Source of the DNA: Thermoprotei archaeon
GTDB taxonomy: Archaea; Thermoproteota; Thermoprotei; Thermoproteales; B15-G16
DNA: 64,000 nucleotides
Reading direction: 5' to 3'
Assembly: GCA_003649205.1 (NCBI GenBank)
Contig: QMRC01000001.1
Span: 128,001 to 192,000 of the forward strand
Shown here: piece by piece, positions 3,825 through 61,853 of the stretch
Position numbering within the stretch: position 1 is the first letter of the stretch
Layout of the letters: every line of letters begins with the position of its first letter
The notes under the pieces: model-generated
Told to the model about the DNA's origin: nothing
Seen by the model: only the letters and a program-made list of their open reading frames with translations
Databases searched by the model: none
Program-made: the position numbers and the translations under genes

Positions 3825-4886
3825 GTGAGCAAGCCAGTGATCTCCATCTACGGTACAGTGTATAATAATGTTAGGACCATACGGACATGTATCACATCCC
3901 TAGCTAAGGCACTTCAGGCTACTGGCATTAGTTGGGAAGTTGTTGTAGTAGACAATTTCTCGAATGATGGTACGTACGAAGCTCTAGTTGAATTAAGTAG
4001 TCTCTATCCCATTAGGTGTATTCGTGAGAAATGCAGTAGAGGTAAGGGAAGAGACATAGCATTACGTCACACACGTGGAGATTACGTCATGTATATTGAC
4101 TTCGATAAGTACTTCACAGAGGAATTCGGCAAGTTAGTCACTGGCTTACTCAAGATCTGTAAACAAAATGAGGTCTACACACCCTATGGCTTTAGCTTAA
4201 GGGAGACAACTATAAGGTTTGGTGGTTGGGTAGACCTAAATCATGGTGAAGATGCTGAGTTCTTTGCTAGAAGTTGTGTAAAGGGAGTTGTAAGGAGAGT
4301 TTTAACTCCTCCATTTTCACTTGAAGAACCTGTTCATCTTCTTCGGAGACGGGGGAGGTATGTCAAAAGTAAGTTGTCATTCTATAGAAGGTTACTTCGA
4401 GATAGACTAGATAGCTTTAGAGGATGTTCATCATCCTACAGACACCTAAGAGAAGTCCACATAGCTAATTCTCGCAATCTAAGAGCTAAATTAGTTAAGT
4501 GCCTGCTATATCTGTTGTCTAGACTACTAGGGCAGTACAAATACAGTAAGTACCTTAGAAATAATGAGTTAGTCCTCTACCGAGAGCGATATGTTCTTCC
4601 TGATGACATCGGATTCCCTAGAGATTATCTCTATTTCATTTGTTACCTCGATACTCTGAGTGATCTTGGATTGAAGATATTGATCAAGAAGTTAGAAGGC
4701 ATAGTAAGTGAGTGTCTTAAGAGAGGATACGAAGGTATTAGAATTCAGGTATCTGCACGAAGTAGGGTTATGTACCTCACCTATCTTAATCCTGAAAGAG
4801 TCTTGCCATACATTAACTATACCGAGATCATAAGATCAGTGTACAGGGGGAGTACGTGGTACAGCATAGTTCTAATGTTTAGGTAA
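3825..4886 (+). CDS. Glycosyltransferase family 2
   Basis: VVVDNFSNDGT, DxD-like YIDFD. Confidence 0.85.
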   Translation: MSKPVISIYGTVYNNVRTIRTCITSLAKALQATGISWEVVVVDNFSNDGTYEALVELSSLYPIRCIREKCSRGKGRDIALRHTRGDYVMYIDFDKYFTEEFGKLVTGLLKICKQNEVYTPYGFSLRETTIRFGGWVDLNHGEDAEFFARSCVKGVVRRVLTPPFSLEEPVHLLRRRGRYVKSKLSFYRRLLRDRLDSFRGCSSSYRHLREVHIANSRNLRAKLVKCLLYLLSRLLGQYKYSKYLRNNELVLYRERYVLPDDIGFPRDYLYFICYLDTLSDLGLKILIKKLEGIVSECLKRGYEGIRIQVSARSRVMYLTYLNPERVLPYINYTEIIRSVYRGSTWYSIVLMFR

Positions 4887-4935
4887 TCAGTAGCGAAAAT
4901 ACTCTTCATCACTCAGGCCTCCGGGTTTTCATCAC
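4887..4935 (-). ncRNA. C/D-box guide sRNA
   Basis: Minus strand reads GTGATGA-AAACCCGGAGGC-CTGA-G-TGATGA-AGAGTATTTTCGCTA-CTGA in intergenic space. Confidence 0.85.
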
Positions 4936-5001
4936 TCTTTCTTCGCCATTATTTTATGTGTCTACAGCTTCTTGGGTTAAAGCACTATCCTTAAATGTAT
5001 T

Positions 5002-12907: not shown

Positions 12908-14887
12908 TTACCGCAGAAGATTTCTGATGTCTTCGGGAAGGGATTCAATATCGATACCCAGCTTTATTAATGTTTCCTTTTTTGGTAATCCTGTTTCAAG
13001 ATCCCAACCACGTTCATCATAGTAATCATCTTGAATTCTATGCAAGTCATCTGTAGTTAGCTGAATTATTCCATAGTAATCTCTCAATTCGATAATTCCC
13101 TCTGGAGTATTCATGGGTCTAAGCCATGTTTTTGGAACTTTATCATCCTCTCTTGTAAATCCTTCACGTGCATTGAGTAATCTATAGAGGTTAAATGCTC
13201 TCTCTCCACATCTCAGTAATTCTTCAGCGCTAATTTCTTTTCCAGTGGCTGCTGAATAGGCTTCAGCTAAGTCATCTATTCCAAAGAAGCCGAAGAATGT
13301 ATACATTGAGCACGTACCGAGACTGTTGTGAACCATCATTCCATCTTCCATGTATTTCGTGTACCTACCAACGTTAAATGCTCCACTATATGGTGTGAAC
13401 TGGAATATTTGTTCAAGTCTATCTTTAGGAATCCCCCAATGTTCAAACTGCTCCCTAATCTCTTTAAGTGGTCGTAATACTTGTGCTGTTTTTGTATGGC
13501 AACCCCCGTGATGAGGCCTTGGATTGACAACGAATGTGAACATTAGTGGATGTAATCTAGCAGGTCTAGCATCGTATATGAAATCAACGCCTTTATTTAT
13601 ACCTGCATACCAGTATTCCTGTGGATCTAGACCATATTTTTCTGCAACTCCAAGCCATCCTTCAGCTAGATCATTACCTACTCCCTTTCTTTCTATAACT
13701 TCATAGAATAACCTTAAGTAGCAATTCCAGTCTCTCCTTATTTCCTCACCTAGCTTATCTTTTGGAATTGCTCCCTCTACGACCTTCTTTGTAAAGAAAT
13801 CTACTAACCTAGTAAATGTATAGTAGTCTAGACCTTCTCTATTAGCTAGACAGACAAGGTATATCATCTTATTATAGTCCTCTATACCCCATAACATAGC
13901 ACTTGTTGCACTTTTACCATAAGGTGATCCTAACCCCCACCATCCCGCGTAATCACCTGTCTTTATCCTCCACTTTATTCTGCATGCAATCAAACATGTT
14001 GGACAAGCATATGTTCTCTCTAGAGTCTCGAGTCTCTTCTCTTCTCCGCACAATCTATCCCATTTATCCTTAGGCCATATACCGGGGTATTGTGTATGTT
14101 TAAATGTTCTCCAACCCGCACCCATACCGAGCTTTATCCAATGTGGTCTATACGACCATTCCATTATTCTCCTTCTAACCTCTAAGACCTTCTTCATAAA
14201 TCTATCAGGGTCGGCTACTGTAATACCTTTTCTAGATCCCTTAACAACTATTGCTTTCAATTTCTTGGATCCAAATATAGCTCCTACTCCATTCCTTCCT
14301 AAGCTATCTCTTTTATCAACAATTGCCATAGCGTATCTAACTAGATGCTCTCCGGCTTTCCCTATAGCTACTACTGAGGCACACTTATTGTGTCTTCGTC
14401 TAAGCTCGTCCGTAGTTTCGTAGATATTCTTCTTACCCCAAAGATCTGAGGCATCATGTATTTCAATATCGTTATCAATTATTTTAAGGTAAACAGGCTC
14501 CTCGGAAGCCCCTGTAATAACAAGTCCATCGTATCCAGCAAGTTTGAGTTCAAGTCCGAGGTTTCCACCAACTACAGACACTGCTATGAAGTGTTTGTAC
14601 TTACCATCTTTCTTACCTGCAATAATTGGTAATTTAGTGAGAGCAATGGTTTTAGTTGCGCTTGGAAACGGTGTTCCAACGAGAGCCCCAGTAAATATAA
14701 TTAACGGATTTTTAGCAGAGAATGGGTCTATTCCTGGAGGTATCATGTCTATTGCAAGTCTAATGGCATAACCCGCACCTCCAATGTACTTGTCTACTAT
14801 TGTGTGGTCTATCGATGTTTCCTTTATCTTCTTTTCTGTTAAATCAACCCAGAGGATTTTCCCCGCGTATAAGTGCATGATTCTCAC
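12908..14887 (-). CDS. aor: Aldehyde:ferredoxin oxidoreductase family (W/Mo)
   Basis: LKLAGYDG, GRNGVGAIFGSKKLKAI, CPTCLIAC, FNxREG-like motif, YYDERGWD. Confidence 0.92.
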   Translation of the reverse strand: MRIMHLYAGKILWVDLTEKKIKETSIDHTIVDKYIGGAGYAIRLAIDMIPPGIDPFSAKNPLIIFTGALVGTPFPSATKTIALTKLPIIAGKKDGKYKHFIAVSVVGGNLGLELKLAGYDGLVITGASEEPVYLKIIDNDIEIHDASDLWGKKNIYETTDELRRRHNKCASVVAIGKAGEHLVRYAMAIVDKRDSLGRNGVGAIFGSKKLKAIVVKGSRKGITVADPDRFMKKVLEVRRRIMEWSYRPHWIKLGMGAGWRTFKHTQYPGIWPKDKWDRLCGEEKRLETLERTYACPTCLIACRIKWRIKTGDYAGWWGLGSPYGKSATSAMLWGIEDYNKMIYLVCLANREGLDYYTFTRLVDFFTKKVVEGAIPKDKLGEEIRRDWNCYLRLFYEVIERKGVGNDLAEGWLGVAEKYGLDPQEYWYAGINKGVDFIYDARPARLHPLMFTFVVNPRPHHGGCHTKTAQVLRPLKEIREQFEHWGIPKDRLEQIFQFTPYSGAFNVGRYTKYMEDGMMVHNSLGTCSMYTFFGFFGIDDLAEAYSAATGKEISAEELLRCGERAFNLYRLLNAREGFTREDDKVPKTWLRPMNTPEGIIELRDYYGIIQLTTDDLHRIQDDYYDERGWDLETGLPKKETLIKLGIDIESLPEDIRNLLR

Positions 14888-14898
14888 CTCAAACCATT

Positions 14899-15123
14899 TT
14901 ACTCATATCGGAGAGCACCATATGGACAAGACTCTACACATTTAAGACATGAATCACATCCGTCTAGTATTTCTGCGTGTGGATTTCCTTCTTCATCTTC
15001 GTATATGCGTATGAAGGCCTTGCTAGGATTGAACTCGTGGAAGTGGTGGAAGGAACACATGAATTGACAAGTCCTACATATTCTGCAATTTTCCGGAACG
15101 AATATTATTCTTTTCTGACTCAT
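14899..15123 (-). CDS. 4Fe-4S ferredoxin-like protein
   Basis: CRICRTCQFMC and CDSCLKCVESCP. Confidence 0.88.
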   Translation of the reverse strand: MSQKRIIFVPENCRICRTCQFMCSFHHFHEFNPSKAFIRIYEDEEGNPHAEILDGCDSCLKCVESCPYGALRYE

Positions 15124-15839
15124 CTTTCACCCTCCATCATCTTCTTATATTCCTCTATTATTTCTACACCAGAACTGGTACCTATTCTATCCGCTCCCGC
15201 TTCTATTACTTCCAGTGCTTGTTTTGCTGTCCTTATACCGCCAGCAGCTTTTATTTTGACTCTATTCCCTACTATTGACTTAATGAACCTCACATCTTCT
15301 GCCGTTGTTGGCCTCCACTTGTGGAATCCTTTGAATCCCGTTGAAGTTTTTATGTAGTGTACTCCAGCCTCAATAGCTAGTTCACAAGCTATTTTTATCT
15401 CCTCTTTAGTGAGGTATGGTACTTCGATAATTGCCTTTACTATGCGGCCTTTAGCAGCTTCTACTATTTTTTTAAGTTCTTCTCTTACTTCATCTATTTT
15501 ACCACTTTTTAAGGCACCTTTATTCAAGACAAAGTCTATTTCTACTTCATCAGCTCCATCCTTGATTGCTCTTTCAACTTCAAGTACCTTAAGCTCTATA
15601 GGAACTGTACCAAGAGGAAATCCTATTGCTGCTGTGATTTTCACTCCTGTTCCCTTGAGGATTTCTCTAGCAAGAGGTATCATCGCTGGATAAATTGCAA
15701 CAGATGCGAATCTGTACTTTTTTGCGTTTAGGAGGAATTTTATAAATTCATCTTCGCTGTCTGGAACAATTTTGAGGTATGTTTGATCTATTCTTTTCGC
15801 AAGTTCTTCCACAGACAGCTTGATCACTTTACTATTCAC
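15120..15839 (-). CDS. deoC: Deoxyribose-phosphate aldolase
   Basis: GFPLG, IKTSTGF (Schiff-base Lys), IKAAGGIR, RIGTSS. Confidence 0.92.
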   Translation of the reverse strand: MNSKVIKLSVEELAKRIDQTYLKIVPDSEDEFIKFLLNAKKYRFASVAIYPAMIPLAREILKGTGVKITAAIGFPLGTVPIELKVLEVERAIKDGADEVEIDFVLNKGALKSGKIDEVREELKKIVEAAKGRIVKAIIEVPYLTKEEIKIACELAIEAGVHYIKTSTGFKGFHKWRPTTAEDVRFIKSIVGNRVKIKAAGGIRTAKQALEVIEAGADRIGTSSGVEIIEEYKKMMEGER

Positions 15840-36825: not shown

Positions 36826-36933
36826 GGGCCCGTAGCTCAGCCTGGTAGAGCGTCGGGCTCTTAACTTGGGTCTGAGGATCGATGACTGGGAGAGACCCGA
36901 AGGTCCCGGGTTCAAATCCCGGCGGGCCCGCCA
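36826..36933 (+). tRNA. tRNA-Lys(CTT) with 31-nt intron (36864..36894) at position 37/38
   Basis: TCGGG-CTCTTA[intron]A-CCCGA; D and T arms and CCA intact. Confidence 0.9.
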
Positions 36934-38343: not shown

Positions 38344-38350
38344 TTAGGTA

Positions 38351-38400
38351 TCAGCTAAGAGAAACTTCTTCACCTACTCTGTGAGTAGGGGCTTCATCAT
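38351..38400 (-). ncRNA. C/D-box guide sRNA
   Basis: Minus strand reads ATGATGA-AGCCCCTACTCA-CAGA-GTAGG-TGAAGA-AGTTTCTCTTAG-CTGA, with two 12-nt guides. Confidence 0.82.
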
Positions 38401-42966: not shown

Positions 42967-44565
42967 TTAAACTCTCAGCTTTCTAAGCATAACTCTAGCT
43001 ATTAGCACAACTACTATCAGCAATGCTACACCTATTCCTGGTGGTATGAGTATGTACGTGCTGAACTCACCCTCTATGAGTGATAGGGGTAGTACCATGA
43101 TGAGTATGGTAGCTACTACCTGAGCTGGTAATAGGAATAGCTGGACGATATACTCCTTAATGTGTAGCGATCTTTGTTGTAGTGTTACCTCGAGTTCACT
43201 AACTGTTACAGGTAGTTGAGTAGCTCTTAGATACGTTCTCAAGCCTAGAAGTAGTGTTAGATCGATGTGTATGTGTAGTGCTACTCCGTACGAAATTAGT
43301 ACAGCCACCAGGGCCATTACTGAAGTTAGCAGTGCTACATCAGGTAGGTGCAGTACTGTACTTAGCACTAGTAGAGCTAGTGATACTGCACATATCGGTG
43401 TTGTGTAGTACCTTAGAGCTAACTTCCTTATGTAGTGACCTAGGTGCCTTATCTCGAGACCAGCGGTGATGAAGTGCCACGATATGAATCCAATTAGTGA
43501 GGTTGTGCTTGTTAGAATCGTGTTAGGTGCTATGACTATAGCAATCATCAATATGCCAACGATTATTGATGGTATTATCTCAGCTCCTTCTATTGATACG
43601 TAGTTTCTCACGATGTAGTCAATCACTGGTGTGAGGATTATTGCAGTACACACTCCAACTGATACTTTGATTAGTTTGTTCCGTAGTAGGGTTTTCATTA
43701 GAGAATTGAGGTCAGTGATGCGTGGTTCATGTAGAGATATAGTGATTGATTCTCCAAATACCACATCTAGCGGCTTAGCTGCTAGTTCATGCCCTGTAAT
43801 ATACATAAGCAGTATTGCCGCAACAACTACGTAGAGTAGTGTTGCTGCAACAGCTGGTGTGAACCTAGCTTCTGCTATGTCGATTACCGCCATTGCAATT
43901 GCTGAGCTAGGTAGTAAATGTGGTACGTACTCGATCTTTAGCCATATGAAGATGGGTCCTAGTACGGATAGGGGTACCATCACTACACGTACAGTACTTA
44001 GAGCATTACTCAACCTAGCTAAGTTACAGTAACGACTCAACTCTGGTAGTGAGGTAATGTACTCAACCGTGAATCTCAATGCTACTAGAGAGAGTAGACT
44101 AGATAGTACGTACATGAAACTGCGAGGAGATGAGACTACTAGCCACACAACCGTGTACACCATGTATGGCATGTATACTAAGATATCGGTAAGTATCGAG
44201 GAGAATACTAGCGTTCGTAGTGAAGTTGATGATACGTAGATTAGATCTAAATCCTCTAGAAGTACATGTGGTATTCCTGAGGGAACCCCAAGACTACCAT
44301 ACTTCCTACCTCTAGCAAGCCCCTTCTTACGTAGTCTAGGTGCTATGGCTGAAAGTATGAGGATTACAGCAAATGCGGTGGACAGAGCTAATTCAGTTAA
44401 ATCTCTCGACATCAAAGTAACTTGTGACCTACTACTTCTCTCTAGAAATCTCGGTAGGATACCAAGCGCACCTATGGCTAGTGCTAGGTATGAGAATTTA
44501 AGTGCTCTAACCGTAGCTAGTGTCTTGTAGTAAGTGAGCTTGAGTAAAGTCGATAACTCACTCAC
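42967..44565 (-). CDS. ABC exporter permease
   Basis: Many TM segments; overlaps the ABC ATPase gene. Confidence 0.7.
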   Translation of the reverse strand: MSELSTLLKLTYYKTLATVRALKFSYLALAIGALGILPRFLERSSRSQVTLMSRDLTELALSTAFAVILILSAIAPRLRKKGLARGRKYGSLGVPSGIPHVLLEDLDLIYVSSTSLRTLVFSSILTDILVYMPYMVYTVVWLVVSSPRSFMYVLSSLLSLVALRFTVEYITSLPELSRYCNLARLSNALSTVRVVMVPLSVLGPIFIWLKIEYVPHLLPSSAIAMAVIDIAEARFTPAVAATLLYVVVAAILLMYITGHELAAKPLDVVFGESITISLHEPRITDLNSLMKTLLRNKLIKVSVGVCTAIILTPVIDYIVRNYVSIEGAEIIPSIIVGILMIAIVIAPNTILTSTTSLIGFISWHFITAGLEIRHLGHYIRKLALRYYTTPICAVSLALLVLSTVLHLPDVALLTSVMALVAVLISYGVALHIHIDLTLLLGLRTYLRATQLPVTVSELEVTLQQRSLHIKEYIVQLFLLPAQVVATILIMVLPLSLIEGEFSTYILIPPGIGVALLIVVVLIARVMLRKLRV

Positions 44566-55514: not shown

Positions 55515-56798
55515 ATGAATCATAAACGAAATTTAAGTTGGGACAACGTGGATCAGTTAGGTGATTCCCTCTTGAGTCTTTCATTGAGGATAAAAGACAT
55601 CGGTCCTGTATCGGAGTTAAGAGGCGAACTTCCTAGACTAACTGTAGTGTATGGGAGAGTAGGCTCTGGTAAGAGCTACATCTTCAGAATATTGACACTA
55701 CTACACCTAGCTCACCAGCTAGCAGAGCTGTGGGGTTTTAGGAAGGGAGGAAGGGAGGACTATGCTAAGGCATTAGCTAGATTAGTTATGTTGGAGTGTG
55801 GTCATTTTGAAGAGGCTTTCTCTGTTGATCCAGAAGTCTTGAGAACTCAGTACGTACCTCATTTCCTTCTGAAGAGAGGTATGGAGAGAGGTACCTACGA
55901 GGTACTTACTTCAGGTAATTTCCTCGCAAGACTTGAGGTATTAAAGAAAGGTATGGACTTAGAGCTTGGAGATGAGTTTAGTGAGTACGTCATTGTGACC
56001 ATACCACAGGAGAGGAATCCAGTACTGATACAGCGCGATTTAGAGACTTTCTCAGCTCGCTTAAGGAAATTGTATGAGAGGTGGGGAACCAGTATACCAA
56101 TACGTCAGCAGGCTTACCTAGCACTTACCTCTGAACTAATGCGGAGAAGTCCTGTCTACATGCACTACCTCATGAATTTACTAGTTGCTACATCCTTTTT
56201 CCTAGAAGAGCGAGAGGTTGAATGTATTGAGCTTGGTAGAGATCATAGACTCAAGCTACTTGTTCACGACATTGGTGAGGTCCTGATATGTGATGAGTAT
56301 TCAACAGGGTCCAGCTACTATGACCTTGAGACACCACTCGTACTTCCTCAAGGAGCAATTGACTACCTACTACTCACACTACTACTCAAAGCTCTTAGAA
56401 AGGCCGCGAGGGAAGTACGTGGTATCAAGTTTTTCCTCGTAGTTGATGAATTCATGGCACACGCAGATCCATTACTAACGATGAAGGCACTAGACCTGGT
56501 TCTCGAGATACTTTACAGTGAGGAGAGAATAAGCATAGTTCTTGTAACTCACAATCCAGATGTAGTGAGTAGGTTACTGAACATCCTTCAGCATAGTAAG
56601 GAGTTCAGAGAGAGATTACTGAATCAAGTAAAGTTCCTCTACCTCGAGTACTTGTCCGAAAAACAGGGAGTAGTAGGCCAATTCTCAGGATTGAAGTTAG
56701 AGGACAATGTTGTGTTACCCGAAAGAGAAATACCTTGGTTAGAGGAGTATACACGGAAACTCACATCACCTACCGAAATACCGAAGGTACCTAGTTGA
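55515..56798 (+). CDS. Soluble ABC-type ATPase (AAA_15/AAA_21-like)
   Basis: IKDIGP, GRVGSGKS, LPQG, LVVDEFMAHADP, VTHN. Confidence 0.8.
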   Translation: MNHKRNLSWDNVDQLGDSLLSLSLRIKDIGPVSELRGELPRLTVVYGRVGSGKSYIFRILTLLHLAHQLAELWGFRKGGREDYAKALARLVMLECGHFEEAFSVDPEVLRTQYVPHFLLKRGMERGTYEVLTSGNFLARLEVLKKGMDLELGDEFSEYVIVTIPQERNPVLIQRDLETFSARLRKLYERWGTSIPIRQQAYLALTSELMRRSPVYMHYLMNLLVATSFFLEEREVECIELGRDHRLKLLVHDIGEVLICDEYSTGSSYYDLETPLVLPQGAIDYLLLTLLLKALRKAAREVRGIKFFLVVDEFMAHADPLLTMKALDLVLEILYSEERISIVLVTHNPDVVSRLLNILQHSKEFRERLLNQVKFLYLEYLSEKQGVVGQFSGLKLEDNVVLPEREIPWLEEYTRKLTSPTEIPKVPS

Positions 56799-56807
56799 GG
56801 TACCTAA

Positions 56808-57239
56808 ATGAGTCTCGTGCTCGATGCATCAGCATTTAAAATACTTGCAAAGCAGAGAAACCTATACGACTTATGTAGGATGTTAAGTGAACTAAGTAGA
56901 AGAGATGGTCGAAGATACATGATTTTGGTACCGAATTCGCTACTTAAGCTATATGAGCGATTAGTTCCAAGGCTTAGATTTGAACCTCGAATATTGAAGA
57001 GAAGCATCCCATTAGCTATTCCAGAAGCTCAGCAGTATCGAAGCAATAGGCTCTTTCAACAGCTTCTACGTGATTTAACTGAATTCTTTAGATCTGAAAA
57101 GCATACTGGTGCTGAGGAAGATGCTGAGTGGCTAGCAACAGCATTGATGTACCACATAGAGTACATAAAGGATGGAGACTTCCTCGTCATAACTCATGGT
57201 GAGTACGAGTATAGACGATTTGCATCAGCAAAAAACTAA
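56808..57239 (+). CDS. PIN-domain-like protein
   Basis: LVLDASAF, EEDAEWLATA, LVIT. Confidence 0.65.
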   Translation: MSLVLDASAFKILAKQRNLYDLCRMLSELSRRDGRRYMILVPNSLLKLYERLVPRLRFEPRILKRSIPLAIPEAQQYRSNRLFQQLLRDLTEFFRSEKHTGAEEDAEWLATALMYHIEYIKDGDFLVITHGEYEYRRFASAKN

Positions 57240-57846
57240 TCGAGCACAGGATACAGCAACTAGGAGAAGCTCACTGGCAACCATGTTGGTACAAAGTTGA
57301 GCACCTCTAGACCTCAGTAATCAGTACAAGTAAGAGAATTATCAGCATCTAACTTAACTTCAAACCATGTATAGGGTTTCGAGCAATGACCACAAAGCTT
57401 ACACAGCACTCAAGTACCTGTGACATTAGGTATGTAAGTAATCGCTATCTCTCTGAACTTAAGCTCACAAACTCCAGCACAAGCAACTCTCTGAACATTC
57501 TACACCATGCCTATGACAATAATGCACTAGCTACGCGTAAGACCCAGGCACATAATCCTGGGATTTAACCTCTTCACTTCCCTTACTTTACTAACCTCAA
57601 CATGCCTATGTAATTCAGTATCGTTACAGGTAGTAGGACCGTGAGCCTCCAAGTATTCAAGTAGGTATTCAGGGTAATTCCTGTAATTTTTGATTGAGTT
57701 CCCATTAGATAGCAGGTCTCTTCATATAGCTTGTCTGTATCACATACCCAGCATTTAAAGCACCTTGCTAACAGGAGTTGCTTGGCAGGAACTGTCGCCT
57801 CTTAGCAAGCTTGAAGTTAGGAAGTGTGTGTTAGGTGTAGGGGGTT

Positions 57847-57924
57847 TGGCGCCCCGGCCGGGATTTGAACCCGGGTCGGCGGAGTGACAGTCCGCCATAC
57901 TAGACCAGGCTATACGACCGGGGC
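57847..57924 (-). tRNA. tRNA-Asp(GTC)
   Basis: GCGGA-CTGTCAC-TCCGC, encoded CCA. Confidence 0.95.
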
Positions 57925-58135
57925 TGTTACGTCGTCTACCATATCTCCCTACTGCGTTTTTATTCGTTACTTCATGAATTCCCTTTACTTTGCTATGTGT
58001 CTTGCTTCATTTCAGCTGCTCAGTTCACGCATTAGTTTGTTTTTGTTTTTCTGTATTTCTTTTGGTGTTCTGTCTCTGTGATGTACCTTGTTTTTGGTCA
58101 TTGTTTTGTGTGGTGTTTCGTCCTTGGTTTCTTGT

Positions 58136-58948
58136 ATGGTTGTTCTTGTTGTTGGTTTTGATCCTGGTCTTAAGTCGTATGGTTATGCTGTTGTTTGTCG
58201 TAGGTTTGATGTTGTTTTGAGGTTTTGTGATCTTCTTTGTCGTAGGGGTGTTTCTCCTGTTTTGGTTTGTCGTATTGGTGGTTTTGGTGTTGTTGCTGGT
58301 GCTCTTGAGGTTAGTAACTACGTTGATCCTAGGGATTTCGTTGTTGAGTTCTTGCTGAGGTTTAGGGATTATGTTTCTCGTGGTTCTGATGTTGTTCCTC
58401 ATTATCGTTACTGTGGTTTTAATTGGTTGATTCCTCATTCTCTTCTACATGATTTGGGGATCTACGTTGTATCTCCTTCGAGATTGAATAGGGTTATTAG
58501 GTGTGCTCTATCTACTTGGTTTAGGAAGTACAAGTATTGTCTGAGGTGTGTTCTTGGTCATCTCTTCTGGTCGTTGTCTAGGCTCTATCACTTCTATAGG
58601 TCTAGGGATGTTGTTGAGATTGTTGTTGCTAGTGAGAGTATCAAGTACGTTTATGCTGGTGGTGAGGAGCTGTATACTAGGTATGTGTGGAGGAGCGTTG
58701 CTAGGATAGCGACTGCAATGTTTAGGTACTGTGTAGCTGGATTCAGTAGGACTGTTATTCTCGATAATCGTACTGTTATGCGACTTGTTAAGCGTTGTCC
58801 TCTCTGTTTAACTAGGTTACGTAGGAAGAGAGCTAGGTACCTTAGTTGTCCCAGGTGTGGTGTTATGCTTCATAGAGATGTTGTTGATGCTGTTAATTAT
58901 GGTGTCTACGTTGCTCGTATGCTTTGTGATGAGCGATCGGAGCGCTGA
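58136..58948 (+). CDS. Truncated TnpB-like RuvC plus Zn-finger protein
   Basis: VGFDPG, IVVASE, CPLC..CPRCG, LHRDVVDAVN; ATG at 58136. Confidence 0.78.
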   Translation: MVVLVVGFDPGLKSYGYAVVCRRFDVVLRFCDLLCRRGVSPVLVCRIGGFGVVAGALEVSNYVDPRDFVVEFLLRFRDYVSRGSDVVPHYRYCGFNWLIPHSLLHDLGIYVVSPSRLNRVIRCALSTWFRKYKYCLRCVLGHLFWSLSRLYHFYRSRDVVEIVVASESIKYVYAGGEELYTRYVWRSVARIATAMFRYCVAGFSRTVILDNRTVMRLVKRCPLCLTRLRRKRARYLSCPRCGVMLHRDVVDAVNYGVYVARMLCDERSER

Positions 58949-59033
58949 GGAGGTGATGATGCATTGCTGACCTAGCTAATTTTCCGCACCCGAGAGGTGC
59001 GGGGGCGATCAGTCCGCCGTCTGAACTCTTTTT
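58926..59033 (+). ncRNA. Putative structured RNA (C/D-box motifs plus IS605 right-end-like hairpin)
   Basis: GTGATGA-12 nt-CTGA-GGAGG-TGATGA..CTGA; CCGCACC-CGAGA-GGTGCGG; TCAG; CTGA; T-run. Confidence 0.6.
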
Positions 59034-59055
59034 ACTAACTGACTGACTGTGTGTT

Positions 59056-59865
59056 GTGGTGATGCTCATGGTCTTGCTGTGGCTTCTCGGTACTGGTGCT
59101 GCTGAGGGTATTCCTGTTCATGGCTGTCACTGTACTGCATGTATGGAGGCTAGGAGGAATCCGCTGTATAGGAGGAGACAGGCGACTTACCTCGTTGATA
59201 CAGGTAACTTAGTGATGTTACTTGATTGTGGTTCTCAGGAGGTTGTTCATAGGGAGCTTCTCGATGTTGAGATTGATTACGTCTTTATATCTCATCCTCA
59301 CTTAGATCACGTAACTGGTATACATGATCTTAGGTGGAGTAAGCAGAGTAAGCAACCTACTTTGGTCATTAACCGTAGGTTCATGTACTGTGATGAGATG
59401 ACTTACCTAATACCTAGGTTGAGGATCTTCTCTGTTGAATACTATGAGGAAGGTAGTGTGTATAGGTTGTGTGATGGTACTAGGATCACTCCCATTAGGT
59501 TGAGGCACGGTGATTTACCTACGTATGGCTTCCTCATCGATTGTGGTAAGGTTATTGCGTATCTTCTCGATACGAAGGGTCTTCCTCAGGAATCTCTGAA
59601 GTTGCTTAGAGAGTACAGTATTGATGTTGCTCTAGTTGACTCTACATTTGGTAGTGGATACGTAAGTGATGCTCACAATACCGTTGTTGATGCTCTTGAG
59701 TTCTCACGTATGCTCAATGTTAGGAAGCTCGTGTTGACCCACATCTCGCACAATGTTACAGGTGGTATGAGAGAGATTGAGGAGCTTGCTAGGAGGTACG
59801 TGAAGGAGCTCTCAGTTAACTGTGAGATTTTAATTGCTCTCGATGGTATGGAGATTCACCTATAG
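59056..59865 (+). CDS. PhnP-like metallo-beta-lactamase-fold hydrolase
   Basis: GTGAAEGIP..CHCTAC, SHPHLDH, THISH. Confidence 0.88.
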   Translation: MVMLMVLLWLLGTGAAEGIPVHGCHCTACMEARRNPLYRRRQATYLVDTGNLVMLLDCGSQEVVHRELLDVEIDYVFISHPHLDHVTGIHDLRWSKQSKQPTLVINRRFMYCDEMTYLIPRLRIFSVEYYEEGSVYRLCDGTRITPIRLRHGDLPTYGFLIDCGKVIAYLLDTKGLPQESLKLLREYSIDVALVDSTFGSGYVSDAHNTVVDALEFSRMLNVRKLVLTHISHNVTGGMREIEELARRYVKELSVNCEILIALDGMEIHL

Positions 59866-59901
59866 TAGCAAACTTTTTATACTTGTAATACATGTATTAC
59901 A

Positions 59902-60411
59902 GTGGTGACATGTATGGGTGAGCGAAGTGAGAAGAAGGTACTGAGTGTTAGAGGTGTTGACGAGGTTACTTATCGTGAATTTGTTGCTACTGCTAAGGAA
60001 CTTGGTAAGACTGTTGGTCAGGCATTGACTGAAGCTATGAGACTGTACTTACTGTTTGCTAAATCTGCATCTACTGCCCTCTCATCACTAGCCAATAACA
60101 TTAATGCTTTGAAGAAGTTGACTAAAAATGCCCTATCAGCAGCATCTGAGGGGTTTAGGGAGGTTATCCCTGAAACCATTAGTAATATCGATGAATTAGA
60201 GGTTGGTAAGGCTGATTTAGAGGCTCTTGGTAAGAGAGTTACGTTCAACAACATTAAGAGGCTCATATTTAGAGAAGATGTCGATAGAGAGACCTTCGAA
60301 AAGTATGTTGTCAGCATATCGAATATTGATGAATTAGTAATTCCTAGTACGCTACCTAGGTTGCTAGTGCTTGCAAGGTGTTGTAATGTTAAGAAGTTAG
60401 CTGTTAGATAG
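59902..60411 (+). CDS. Hypothetical protein with N-terminal ribbon-helix-helix-like motif
   Basis: SVRGVDEVTYREF..GKTVGQALTEAM; internal ISNIDEL repeat. Confidence 0.7.
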   Translation: MVTCMGERSEKKVLSVRGVDEVTYREFVATAKELGKTVGQALTEAMRLYLLFAKSASTALSSLANNINALKKLTKNALSAASEGFREVIPETISNIDELEVGKADLEALGKRVTFNNIKRLIFREDVDRETFEKYVVSISNIDELVIPSTLPRLLVLARCCNVKKLAVR

Positions 60412-60467
60412 GTTTAATTCTCGTAAGATTTTTCTAGCTCTCTCTCACTTCCCTCTTTTGTGATTGT

Positions 60468-61853
60468 ATGAGGAGGACGAAGATAATAGCTACCATTGGG
60501 CCTTCTAGTAGATCTTATGATATACTGTTTAGGTTGGTCCTTGAGGGTGTTAGTGGTTTTAGGCTGAATTTCGCTCATGGTACTCATGAGGAGAAGCTTG
60601 AGGAGGCTAAAGCTGTTAGAGCTATTGAGCGGGAGCTAGGTACCTACGTTACTATTGTCTGTGATCTATCTGGTCCAAGTGTGAGGTTAGGTAAGGTACC
60701 TGAGTTCTACGTTCATGAGGGTGAGCAAGTTCATTTAGTGTACTCCGATGTTGGTAAAGCTGAGGAAAAGGAGGTACCTGTACCTGTTAGGCAGTTCTTT
60801 GAAGTTCTTGAGGATGGCGACATCGTCCTTATTGACGATGGTAGGGTTTGGCTTCGTGTAGATAAGATACGTAGGGATAGAGTGGTGTGTACAGTCTTGA
60901 CCAGTGGTGCTATTAGACCTGGTAAGGGTATAGGTATTAAGGGTAAGGACTTAGAGTTACCTCCACTAACTAGCAAGGATGTCGAGGACATTAAGTTCTG
61001 TGTAGCTAATGGAATTGTCGATTACTTTGCACTATCATTCGTTAAGCGTGGCGATGACGTTAAGATACTGAGAGACTTACTAAATGACCTCGGTGCCGAT
61101 GATGTTGGTATACTAGCTAAGATTGAAACTAAGAGTGCTGTTGATAGGGTGGATGAGATTGTTCAGCAGAGTGATGGTGTTATCATTGCTCGTGGTGATC
61201 TAGGTATTAGTCTTGGTCTTGAGAAGGTACCAATTGTTCAGCATGAGATCGTTAGGAAGTGTAGGTACAGTGGTAAACCGTCGATAATAGCTACGCAGAT
61301 TCTCGAGTCAATGGTTGAGTCACCAGTACCCACGAGAGCTGAGGTCGTTGACATCATGGTGTCAGTACAGGAAGGTGTCGATGCTATCTTACTAACCAAT
61401 GAAACTGCTATTGGTAAATACCCAGTGACCTGTGTTACGTGGTTGAAAAGAGTCTTACTGGAGGCAGAGCAGAGGTATCAACCTGAACAAGTTGATGCTA
61501 CTGATGACCTCTACGATAAATTCGCTAGAGGTGTTGCCTCTCTAGCTGACTTCATCGGTGCTAAGCTACTGATCTTTACAAGGAGAGGAACAACAGCTAG
61601 GAGGATAGTGAAGTATAGACCGAGAACAGCAATCTACGTAGCAACACCAAGTGAGGTCATTGCTAGGAGGCTCAACGTCATGTGGGGTGTAAAGTCATTT
61701 GTAATTGAGGAGAGAGATGTCAGTAAGGCGCTCGATAAATTCCTTGAGCACCTAAAGGAGAGGGGTGACTTAACGTACGGTGATATCGTCATACTGACAG
61801 GTGGTATGAGAGGAGGAGCAACAGACTTAGCAAGAGTAGAGATTGTCAGGTAG
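60468..61853 (+). CDS. pyk: Pyruvate kinase
   Basis: TKIIATIGP, AKIE, ARGDLG, ATQILESM, PTRAE. Confidence 0.95.
   Translation: MRRTKIIATIGPSSRSYDILFRLVLEGVSGFRLNFAHGTHEEKLEEAKAVRAIERELGTYVTIVCDLSGPSVRLGKVPEFYVHEGEQVHLVYSDVGKAEEKEVPVPVRQFFEVLEDGDIVLIDDGRVWLRVDKIRRDRVVCTVLTSGAIRPGKGIGIKGKDLELPPLTSKDVEDIKFCVANGIVDYFALSFVKRGDDVKILRDLLNDLGADDVGILAKIETKSAVDRVDEIVQQSDGVIIARGDLGISLGLEKVPIVQHEIVRKCRYSGKPSIIATQILESMVESPVPTRAEVVDIMVSVQEGVDAILLTNETAIGKYPVTCVTWLKRVLLEAEQRYQPEQVDATDDLYDKFARGVASLADFIGAKLLIFTRRGTTARRIVKYRPRTAIYVATPSEVIARRLNVMWGVKSFVIEERDVSKALDKFLEHLKERGDLTYGDIVILTGGMRGGATDLARVEIVR

Follow-up and report, generated by a model that had tools for sequence, protein, structure and literature searches.

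The closest described relatives of the element analyzed here are the C/D-box small RNAs (sRNAs) of archaea. According to the available part of a six-species survey (PMC7994747), most genes for these RNAs overlap an adjacent open reading frame (ORF), the upstream gene has its stop codon in one of the four boxes in ~25% of them, most of the RNAs are processed from longer transcripts with the box motifs as a maturation requirement, and the box motifs are essential for sRNA stability. The available part of a study of Pyrobaculum (PMC6009581) reports that 61% of the sense-overlap guides at ORF 3' ends are orphans, that one third of the sRNA families target tRNAs (~80% of those with a single working guide), and that there are 23 predicted tRNA target positions. 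Two nuclease systems are also relevant, i.e., TnpB with its omega RNA (ISDra2 of the IS200/IS605 type; PDB 8h1j) and TIGR-Tas, in which the TasR protein combines RuvC and Nop domains and the tigRNAs are box C/D-like (PMC12045711, in its available part). Here we describe an element at the 3' end of a TnpB-related gene in a 64,000-nt stretch of the genome of a Thermoprotei archaeon (assembly GCA_003649205.1; contig QMRC01000001.1, positions 128001 to 192000; the whole stretch is the window below, and positions are numbered within it). The element is probably a C/D-box sRNA gene of atypical build that sits on the 3' end of an unrelated gene (estimated probability, roughly 0.6).

The element shares with the published 3'-overlapping archaeal sRNAs (PMC6009581 and PMC7994747, in their available parts) the consensus order of box C, a 12-nt guide, box D', a short loop, and box C', as well as a stop codon within a box, an overlapping guide that is an orphan, and a putative second guide complementary to a tRNA. 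It also lies in a genome that has many such sRNAs and encodes Nop5. The stop codon in D', the orphan coding guide, and the possible tRNA guide on the free side fit the published pattern. The locus departs from this pattern in having no box D 10 to 14 nt after C'; the only conserved CUGA is 60 to 61 nt away, behind a hairpin. Many eukaryotic C/D small nucleolar RNAs (snoRNAs) carry extra sequence that is looped out as a stem between C' and the D guide. The element would resemble those snoRNAs with long structured spacers if the distal CUGA were used as box D and the stem were looped out; it differs from them in its archaeal context, where the spacing is normally ~12 nt.

Layout of the locus

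The assembly that holds the window comprises 2.07 Mb in 31 contigs (G+C content, 43%). The ortholog referred to below is the syntenic locus in one same-genus relative in the genome collection, which was the sole ortholog found. The features of the locus are as follows.

57847 to 57924, reverse strand: tRNA-Asp(GTC) gene (ARAGORN; Rfam tRNA, 57.1 bits), 100% identical in the ortholog
58136 to 58948, forward strand: ORF for a 270-aa RuvC and TNB zinc-ribbon protein, a TnpB-derived module without WED and REC
58893 to 58900, forward strand: TATA-like octamer TTAATTAT, 26 to 33 nt upstream of box C, kept in the ortholog
58926 to 58932, forward strand: box C, GUGAUGA (DNA, GTGATGA), within the final codons of the ORF
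58933 to 58944, forward strand: D' guide or spacer of 12 nt, GCGATCGGAGCG (listed also as GCGAUCGGAGCG), coding sequence and an orphan as a guide
58945 to 58948, forward strand: box D', CUGA (DNA, CTGA), including the ORF stop codon TGA (58946 to 58948)
58949 to 58952, forward strand: variable loop GGAG of 4 nt, with one extra base and one substitution in the ortholog
58953 to 58959, forward strand: box C', GUGAUGA (AUGAUGA in the ortholog)
58960 to 58983, forward strand: spacer at the place expected for a canonical D guide and box D, with 3 of 24 positions changed in the ortholog
58984 to 59002, forward strand: hairpin with a 7-bp GC-rich stem (arms CCGCACC, 58984 to 58990, and GGTGCGG, 58996 to 59002) and a 5-nt loop
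59009 to 59020, forward strand: putative D guide UCAGUCCGCCGU, 11 bases of which pair with tRNA-Asp, with 0 of 12 positions changed in the ortholog
59021 to 59024, forward strand: distal candidate box D, CUGA (DNA, CTGA), 61 nt past C' (ortholog, 60 nt)
59029 to 59038, forward strand: TTTTTACTAA, starting with TTTTT (59029 to 59033), 24 to 33 nt upstream of ATG 59062 and invariant in the ortholog
59056 to 59865, forward strand: metallo-beta-lactamase-fold gene, outside the RNA (Pfam Lactamase_B_2; E = 6e-20), syntenic in the ortholog

A sequence-only reading of the window had described box C, the spacer, D' with the stop codon, C', the hairpin, a TCAG (59009 to 59012), the distal CTGA, and a T-run, all of which lie exactly where it had placed them. 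It had not mentioned a nearer CTGA (58967 to 58970), just 7 nt past C', which reads CTCA in the ortholog. For the mini RuvC-TNB gene, translation probably begins at ATG 58136; the ORF as listed opens at TTG 58088. The octamer TTAATTAT doubles as coding sequence for the RuvC-III motif and could be the sRNA's own promoter. Similarly, TTTTTACTAA may serve as a terminator (T-run), as a TATA-like box of the downstream gene, or as both.

C/D-box signature

A search of the genome with the strict pattern RTGATGA-N10-13-CTGA-N2-9-NTGATGA gives 21 sites, against none in the controls (i.e., the reversed genome and the genome complemented without reversal). At 20 of the 21 sites another CTGA follows after 10 to 13 nt, which marks those sites as canonical sRNAs; the locus examined here is the sole exception. 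A sequence-only covariance model built from the 20 canonical sRNAs of the genome (R1) has its best match in the window at this locus (25.7 bits; E = 4.3e-7), covering model positions 2 to 44 of 55, and the end of the alignment at position 44 indicates that box D is missing. The ortholog scores 21.3 bits over model positions 2 to 42. Genome-wide, 79 R1 matches were obtained at E <= 0.01 in this genome (20 of them the training set), as well as 70 in the same-genus relative. The locus is the only one of the 79 without a CUGA 10 to 14 nt after C'; four other matches to part of the model all have a CTGA 13 to 14 nt after C'. Since its training set was canonical, R1 may have overlooked other atypical sRNAs in these counts.

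Box C, the ~12-nt guide, and box D' are identical in the ortholog, and C' follows D' within 2 to 9 nt, a spacing capable of forming a kink loop (K-loop; the GGAG loop is followed by GUGAUGA). Past C', CTGA occurs at +7 and +61 (CTCA at +7 and CTGA at +60 in the ortholog), and none lies within the 10 to 14 nt expected for box D. Folding of the region is not unusual (z = -0.97 for 121 nt and z = -1.3 for 336 nt). On the basis of the pattern counts, the R1 score, and retention in the ortholog, the C/D-box features noted in the sequence-only reading are upheld, and the element is very probably of C/D nature.

An intron of the bulge-helix-bulge type, whose excision would remove ~49 nt and regain the canonical spacing, was considered and rejected; the only candidate is an all-G-U helix that clashes with the hairpin. 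Two more C/D sRNAs were found in the window with R1 (4885 to 4936, reverse strand, 23.6 bits; 38350 to 38400, reverse strand, 11.6 bits), both full length and with a canonical box D.

Conservation in the ortholog

Over the noncoding part of the locus (58949 to 59055), 13 alignment columns differ from the ortholog. Three are in the variable loop or at the R of C', and the hairpin loop accounts for five; the others are at 58969, 58972, 58982, 59005, and 59045. The change at 58969 destroys the near CTGA. The 14 stem bases of the hairpin are invariant while its loop is fully changed (5 nt here and 4 nt in the ortholog), and this change of loop length is more in keeping with a stem in an RNA than with a DNA site bound by a dimer. 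The C' hexamer, the stems, the putative guide (12 nt), the distal CTGA, and the T-run are all free of changes. For the 41 sites predicted by the sequence-only reading, the probability of no change is 0.001 with 13 changes, and 0.01 with nine independent events (i.e., with the hairpin loop counted as one).

These differences were calibrated on 14 orthologous pairs of canonical sRNAs, in which 6 of 337 guide positions, 7 of 308 box positions, 4 of 48 loop positions, and 96 of 1,069 positions in 40-nt flanks are changed; the remaining 6 of the 20 strict sRNAs were dropped for want of an adequate match among the 30 loci fetched from the relative. By these rates, the 12 nt right after C' change as flanks do, and the distal 12 nt as guides do. 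The 20 nt beyond the distal guide are likewise invariant, and the metallo-beta-lactamase gene probably has its TATA region among them; the promoter of this gene may be part of the cause of the conservation of 59021 to 59044. Coding is excluded for this stretch by an in-frame stop codon (59044 to 59046). The conservation that the sequence-only reading had named as a check thus holds for the C' hexamer, the stems, the guide, and the distal CUGA, with the limit that it comes from one ortholog.

Searches for further orthologs yielded one homologous cluster in a word-index protein search and one in an exhaustive HMMER search of 1.84 billion representatives. A metagenome protein scan returned 217 pattern matches and 0 relatives, and DNA pattern searches found only the contig of the ortholog and unrelated contigs. 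Among four public runs, two carry the haplotype of the ortholog, one covers only the coding part (to ~58881), and the fourth matches the window closely, with 2 letters different over 58871 to 59052. No third variant is present in these runs.

Complementarity to tRNA-Asp

The 11-mer CAGTCCGCCGT at 59010 to 59020, directly before the distal CTGA, pairs with AUGGCGGACUG of the neighboring tRNA-Asp (canonical positions 24 to 34) through 10 Watson-Crick pairs and 1 G-U pair, as the sequence-only reading had noted. The helix ends at the base adjoining the distal CUGA, and the N+5 pair is G59016-C28 (the N+5 rule was taken as worded in the available part of PMC6009581). That reading had allowed that the match might be due to chance. 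A helix of 11 bp with at most one G-U pair to tRNA-Asp arose in 3 of 2,000 shuffles of the 15 nt before the CTGA (~0.15%), and 6 of 300 shuffled guides matched any of the 40 tRNAs, which gives 1 to 2% overall for any tRNA. When the whole 108-nt region was shuffled, an 11-bp match appeared in 4 of 300 cases; random real windows of 108 nt gave 4 of 600. Among the canonical guides of the genome, 1 of 40 reaches 10 bp with any tRNA (shuffled guides, 5 of 400), with a helix over the anticodon region of tRNA-Met(CAU). The complementarity to tRNA-Asp directly before the conserved CUGA is therefore unlikely to have arisen by chance.

The searches for further guide targets that the sequence-only reading had suggested were negative within their scopes. 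Allowing up to 2 mismatches, the genome contains no second match to the putative distal guide. The D' guide lacks a complementary site elsewhere in its own genome and has no match in the genome's own tRNAs and no conserved target in 41 genomes (own included), where the target pattern is no commoner than the control. It also has no match in the rRNA loci of two proxy relatives, which is a weak test given that 7 of 40 real guides and 44 of 400 shuffled guides match there; rRNA is assembled in neither this genome nor that of the same-genus relative.

Proposed function and alternative explanations

In the reading that we favor, the sRNA gene would overlap the ORF's 3' end in the sense direction, with box C and the D' guide in its last eight codons and the stop codon doubling as the UGA of box D'. 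The RNA would most likely be excised from the 3' end of the mRNA or be transcribed from the TATA-like element inside the ORF. L7Ae would bind at the D'/C' K-loop, and the conserved CUGA at 59021 would act as box D, with the extra ~49 nt, stabilized by the conserved hairpin, looped out. The 11 to 12 nt before the distal CUGA would then guide fibrillarin to 2'-O-methylate C28 of tRNA-Asp, and the D' guide would be an orphan constrained by coding. Transcription, assembly of the ribonucleoprotein (RNP), use of the distal box D, and methylation are all predicted here from the observed motifs and their statistics, the conservation in one ortholog, and the complementarity. We regard the use of the distal CUGA together with C28 as the target as tentative, with chances somewhat short of even. 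The tie between the RNA and the TnpB-derived gene is probably positional and not functional.

Use of the distal CUGA would make the locus a naturally occurring case of an archaeal C/D sRNA in which a structured insertion of ~49 nt between C' and the guide is tolerated; it would contradict the supposedly fixed 12-nt spacing and imply a so far undescribed ribose methylation within the tRNA-Asp anticodon stem. Without such use, the locus would instead show an sRNA in the course of decay at the end of an ORF.

Several observations weigh against this reading. A strict 12-nt spacing has been reported for archaeal C/D RNPs, with which a 61-nt gap conflicts, and the distance from C' to D has no parallel in the other 78 R1 matches of the genome. 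CTGA is locally frequent (four sites within 90 nt downstream), so that CTGA alone is cheap. All Rfam C/D families at 58922 to 58972 score below threshold (the best is sR33, with 22.5 bits against a gathering threshold of 37), which sets the locus apart from the published archaeal sRNAs; in the comparison with C/D models proposed in the sequence-only reading, R1 matches over part of its length and the Rfam families stay below threshold. The invariant block (59006 to 59044) covers the likely downstream promoter, which makes its conservation only partly specific, and the comparison covers only two haplotypes. The 120 genomes of the class that were searched yielded no canonical sRNA carrying this guide, and there was no RNA run among the public runs that carry the locus. 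Furthermore, ribose methylation is not known to occur at tRNA position 28.

An alternative is a C/D sRNA that is decaying and has lost box D. In such a case, C, D', and C' would remain and might still bind L7Ae at the K-loop without guiding anything, the hairpin would be a stability element of the mRNA 3' end, 59021 to 59040 would be the transcription factor B recognition element and TATA box of the downstream gene, and the tRNA match would be a coincidence. The lack of a box D at the canonical distance in this locus alone, the confinement of the R1 alignment to model positions 2 to 44, the flank-like divergence of the 12 nt after C', and the loss of the near CTGA in the ortholog all point in this direction, as do the abundance of CTGA and the absence of a homologous guide from the 120 genomes. 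The position of TTTTTACTAA (24 to 33 nt before ATG 59062) is that expected for the TATA box of a leaderless gene. However, the C' hexamer and its R position behave as in functional sRNAs, positions 59006 to 59020 lie upstream of any core promoter element and yet are invariant, and the 11-bp tRNA match ends exactly at the CUGA (chance, ~0.15 to 2%). Given that the boxes are essential for stability (PMC7994747, in its available part), an sRNA without box D should moreover have decayed instead of staying conserved. We therefore consider a crippled sRNA unlikely, at somewhat under one chance in three.

The boxes overlap the stop codon, and they might act in cis as a K-loop or kink turn (K-turn) on the mRNA of the nuclease-like protein, with L7Ae tuning stability or translation and no guide function. 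Binding of L7Ae to K-turns in mRNAs has been proposed (PMC5539422, in its available part). Nothing at the locus, however, sets this explanation apart from an ordinary excised sRNA, and it leaves the conserved hairpin and the guide-like block unexplained. The L7Ae-mRNA K-turn cases that have been published concern 5' untranslated regions, which further counts against it. A cis-acting role is accordingly improbable.

The host gene and the omega-RNA hypothesis

The sequence-only reading had gone further and proposed a hybrid of omega RNA and C/D RNA, i.e., either an omega-RNA-like guide for the mini-RuvC protein, in which a K-turn with L7Ae replaces WED and REC, or a transposon guide co-opted for methylation. 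The assessment of this idea depends on the host protein. By its substitution pattern relative to the ortholog, the host gene is under purifying selection (ratio of nonsynonymous to synonymous substitution rates, 0.17; differences by codon position, 7/12/34). Direct protein searches found only the ortholog in the same-genus relative. The family also includes a paralog in the same genome (270 aa; 26% identity over the full length; pairwise E = 6e-11) and a third member of 267 aa (E = 2.8e-16) in a genome of another family of the same class. The family profile aligns full-length TnpB proteins (380 to 430 aa) to residues 110 to 255 (E = 1e-11 to 1e-7); this profile search gave TnpB matches in 88 of 401 Thermoproteota genomes. 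E167, C224, C238, C241, and D248 are invariant in all 16 aligned sequences, and C221 is nearly so; D9 is invariant in the three-sequence family alignment and is aligned in the four family members that reach this position. The protein has the D-E-D residues of a RuvC fold, and its zinc ribbon is inserted before RuvC-III.

Individual searches with the host protein gave 22.5 bits for Pfam TNB (cut-off, 26.3; the paralog scores 53.9 bits), hhalign probabilities of 90 to 94%, and a weak Pfam RuvC match to residues 5 to 22 (E = 0.22). A sequence search of the PDB returned nothing meaningful. Matches in the ESM Atlas, which serve as leads only, were to TNB clusters (0.91; whole protein) and TnpB/RuvC clusters (0.84 to 0.86; residues 1 to 212). 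The best AlphaFold2 model from the family alignment had a mean predicted local distance difference test (pLDDT) score of 76 and a predicted template modeling score of 0.73 (mean pLDDT of the other four models, 51 to 58); the single-sequence model was unusable (pLDDT, 40). A fold search with this model matched bacterial RuvC (Z = 13.5; 140 residues aligned), the RuvC domains of Cas12 proteins (Z = 10 to 11), and TnpB 8h1j (Z = 10.1), although the likeness in the C-terminal part is partly built in because TnpB segments were present in the input alignment. Since model residues 2 to 265 align to chain residues 184 to 378 of 8h1j, the host protein is, according to the model, the RuvC and TNB module of TnpB without a counterpart of residues 1 to 183, which we take to be the N-terminal WED/REC part, where TnpB binds its omega RNA and the heteroduplex. 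It belongs to a very small RuvC and zinc-ribbon family with catalytic residues kept, which bears on how TnpB modules are domesticated.

Two peculiarities of composition were noted. On the coding strand between 58000 and 58999, T outnumbers A to an extreme degree (AT skew, -0.63 in 58000 to 58499; nearby values, +0.16 to -0.2). The protein contains much Val, Arg, and Leu, 14 Cys, only 6 Lys, and no Gln, which is unusual for a hyperthermophile protein. Its tail, CDERSER, has box C and the D' guide within its codons and is unconserved in both the paralog and the third family member, as expected if the reading frame simply runs into an sRNA gene.

A hybrid would consist of an L7Ae-bound K-turn or K-loop scaffold, a hairpin, and a conserved 3' guide that together replace the RNA-binding half of TnpB; if true, it would be an RNA-guided nuclease bridging C/D RNPs and TnpB and conceptually near TIGR-Tas. 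As with the omega RNA of TnpB, the RNA overlaps the 3' end of a RuvC/TNB gene, here with an intact D-E-D triad and zinc ribbon, and a terminal hairpin is followed by a single-stranded stretch, which here is conserved. RuvC nucleases of the TIGR-Tas type can use RNAs with box C/D-like flanks (PMC12045711, in its available part), and here too a RuvC-type gene stands beside a C/D RNA with two potential guides.

Against these likenesses, the protein begins at the RuvC-I strand and equals only TnpB residues 184 to 378, that is, it has no WED or REC. The locus is single copy in the genome, without repeated, inverted, or insertion sequence (IS) ends and without TnpA, so that it is not the right end of an IS200/IS605-type element, and the synteny is the same in the ortholog. 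The putative guide has no second DNA match (up to 2 mismatches), and folding gives no support for an omega-RNA-like scaffold with several stems (z about -1). The motifs are of the C/D sRNA type, and the RNA is not conserved with the protein family, given that the paralog and the third member lack a C/D RNA (best R1 score, 4.8 bits). At 12 loci for another kind of mini-TNB protein in genomes of family f3, the 3' flank has no C box, and whole loci of relatives that match TNB or TnpB (L003 to L020) have no sequence similarity to this one (all E >= 0.096). An Rfam 15 scan of the locus (E <= 10) listed only tRNA-type and C/D snoRNA families.

The locus differs from TIGR-Tas on other points. There is no TIGR-like array, i.e., no tandem array of dual-spacer repeat units, in 56500 to 60500. 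No Pfam Nop match (E <= 1) was found in the protein, and RuvC and TNB account for its whole length. The listed matches of the fold search are all RuvC-type and span residues 1 to 267, and absence of Nop from that list does not exclude such a domain. The boxes are full archaeal C/D boxes of the K-turn type, like those of the other 78 sRNA matches of the genome. The available part of the TIGR-Tas report (PMC12045711) describes no hybrid of TnpB and C/D RNAs; it was the sole paper in the literature searched that pairs "TnpB" with "box sRNA." Finally, sRNAs commonly overlap ORF 3' ends no matter which gene hosts them (PMC7994747, in its available part), and such overlaps with the stop codon inside a box are known and frequent in Crenarchaeota (PMC6009581 and PMC7994747), so that the hybrid idea rests on an arrangement that is ordinary in these archaea. 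The C/D half of the proposal accordingly stands, while its omega-RNA half and a functional link to the nuclease find no support; we consider a hybrid of either kind very improbable.

Least likely of all, and rejected here, is an origin of the direct repeat CAGTCCGCCAT (57889 to 57899) and CAGTCCGCCGT (59010 to 59020; both read on the forward strand, 9 to 11 nt) as the remnant of a 1.1-kb element integrated in the tRNA-Asp gene: the repeat is direct, brackets the nuclease gene, and involves the tRNA that is its immediate neighbor, but the similarity ends at 9 to 11 nt with no more tRNA sequence past 59020, the repeated part is the 5' half of the anticodon stem and not a 3' tRNA segment, no integrase is present, and the ortholog shows the same synteny and the same bounds of the locus.

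Related proteins and other features

The paralog of the mini RuvC-TNB gene lies on contig C3 (291,428 nt) at 276227 to 277036, mirrored at 14393 to 15202 (reverse strand), and its product keeps the D-E-D triad and the zinc ribbon. Approximately 40 to 100 nt past this gene is a long imperfect hairpin flanked by UUGAUGA and AUGAUGA; the downstream region has a weak Rfam sR18 match (20.5 bits against 45) and no R1 match. Contig C3 contains mirror-image pairs of matches whose coordinates sum to ~291,429 (e.g., 43232 to 43264 on the reverse strand with 248165 to 248197 on the forward strand, and 14426 on the reverse strand with 277003 on the forward strand). The contig looks like a fold-back (palindromic) assembly artifact, so that apparent duplicates on it are probably single genes. 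The third mini RuvC-TNB member is a 267-aa frame at the end of a contig, with a canonical "KIEDL" RuvC-II motif and P-C-C instead of C-x-x-C as the first zinc-ribbon pair.

The genomes of family f3 encode a conserved protein of ~243 aa with HAMDVNE in the middle and a C-terminal TNB zinc ribbon and RDVNA; its Pfam TNB scores are just above the cut-off (loci L006, L008 to L012, L015, and L017 to L020). It looks like another domesticated mini TnpB-like family, with an architecture unlike that of the host protein.

Elsewhere in the window, a 105-nt Rfam tRNA match (36826 to 36930, forward strand; 62 bits) that was not reported by ARAGORN is probably an intron-containing tRNA. Just upstream of the tRNA-Asp gene (55515 to 57239, forward strand), a gene for a 427-aa AAA_21 (AbiEii-like) ATPase is followed after 10 nt by a 143-aa ORF without a Pfam match, and this pair may be a two-gene defense or toxin-antitoxin-like module.

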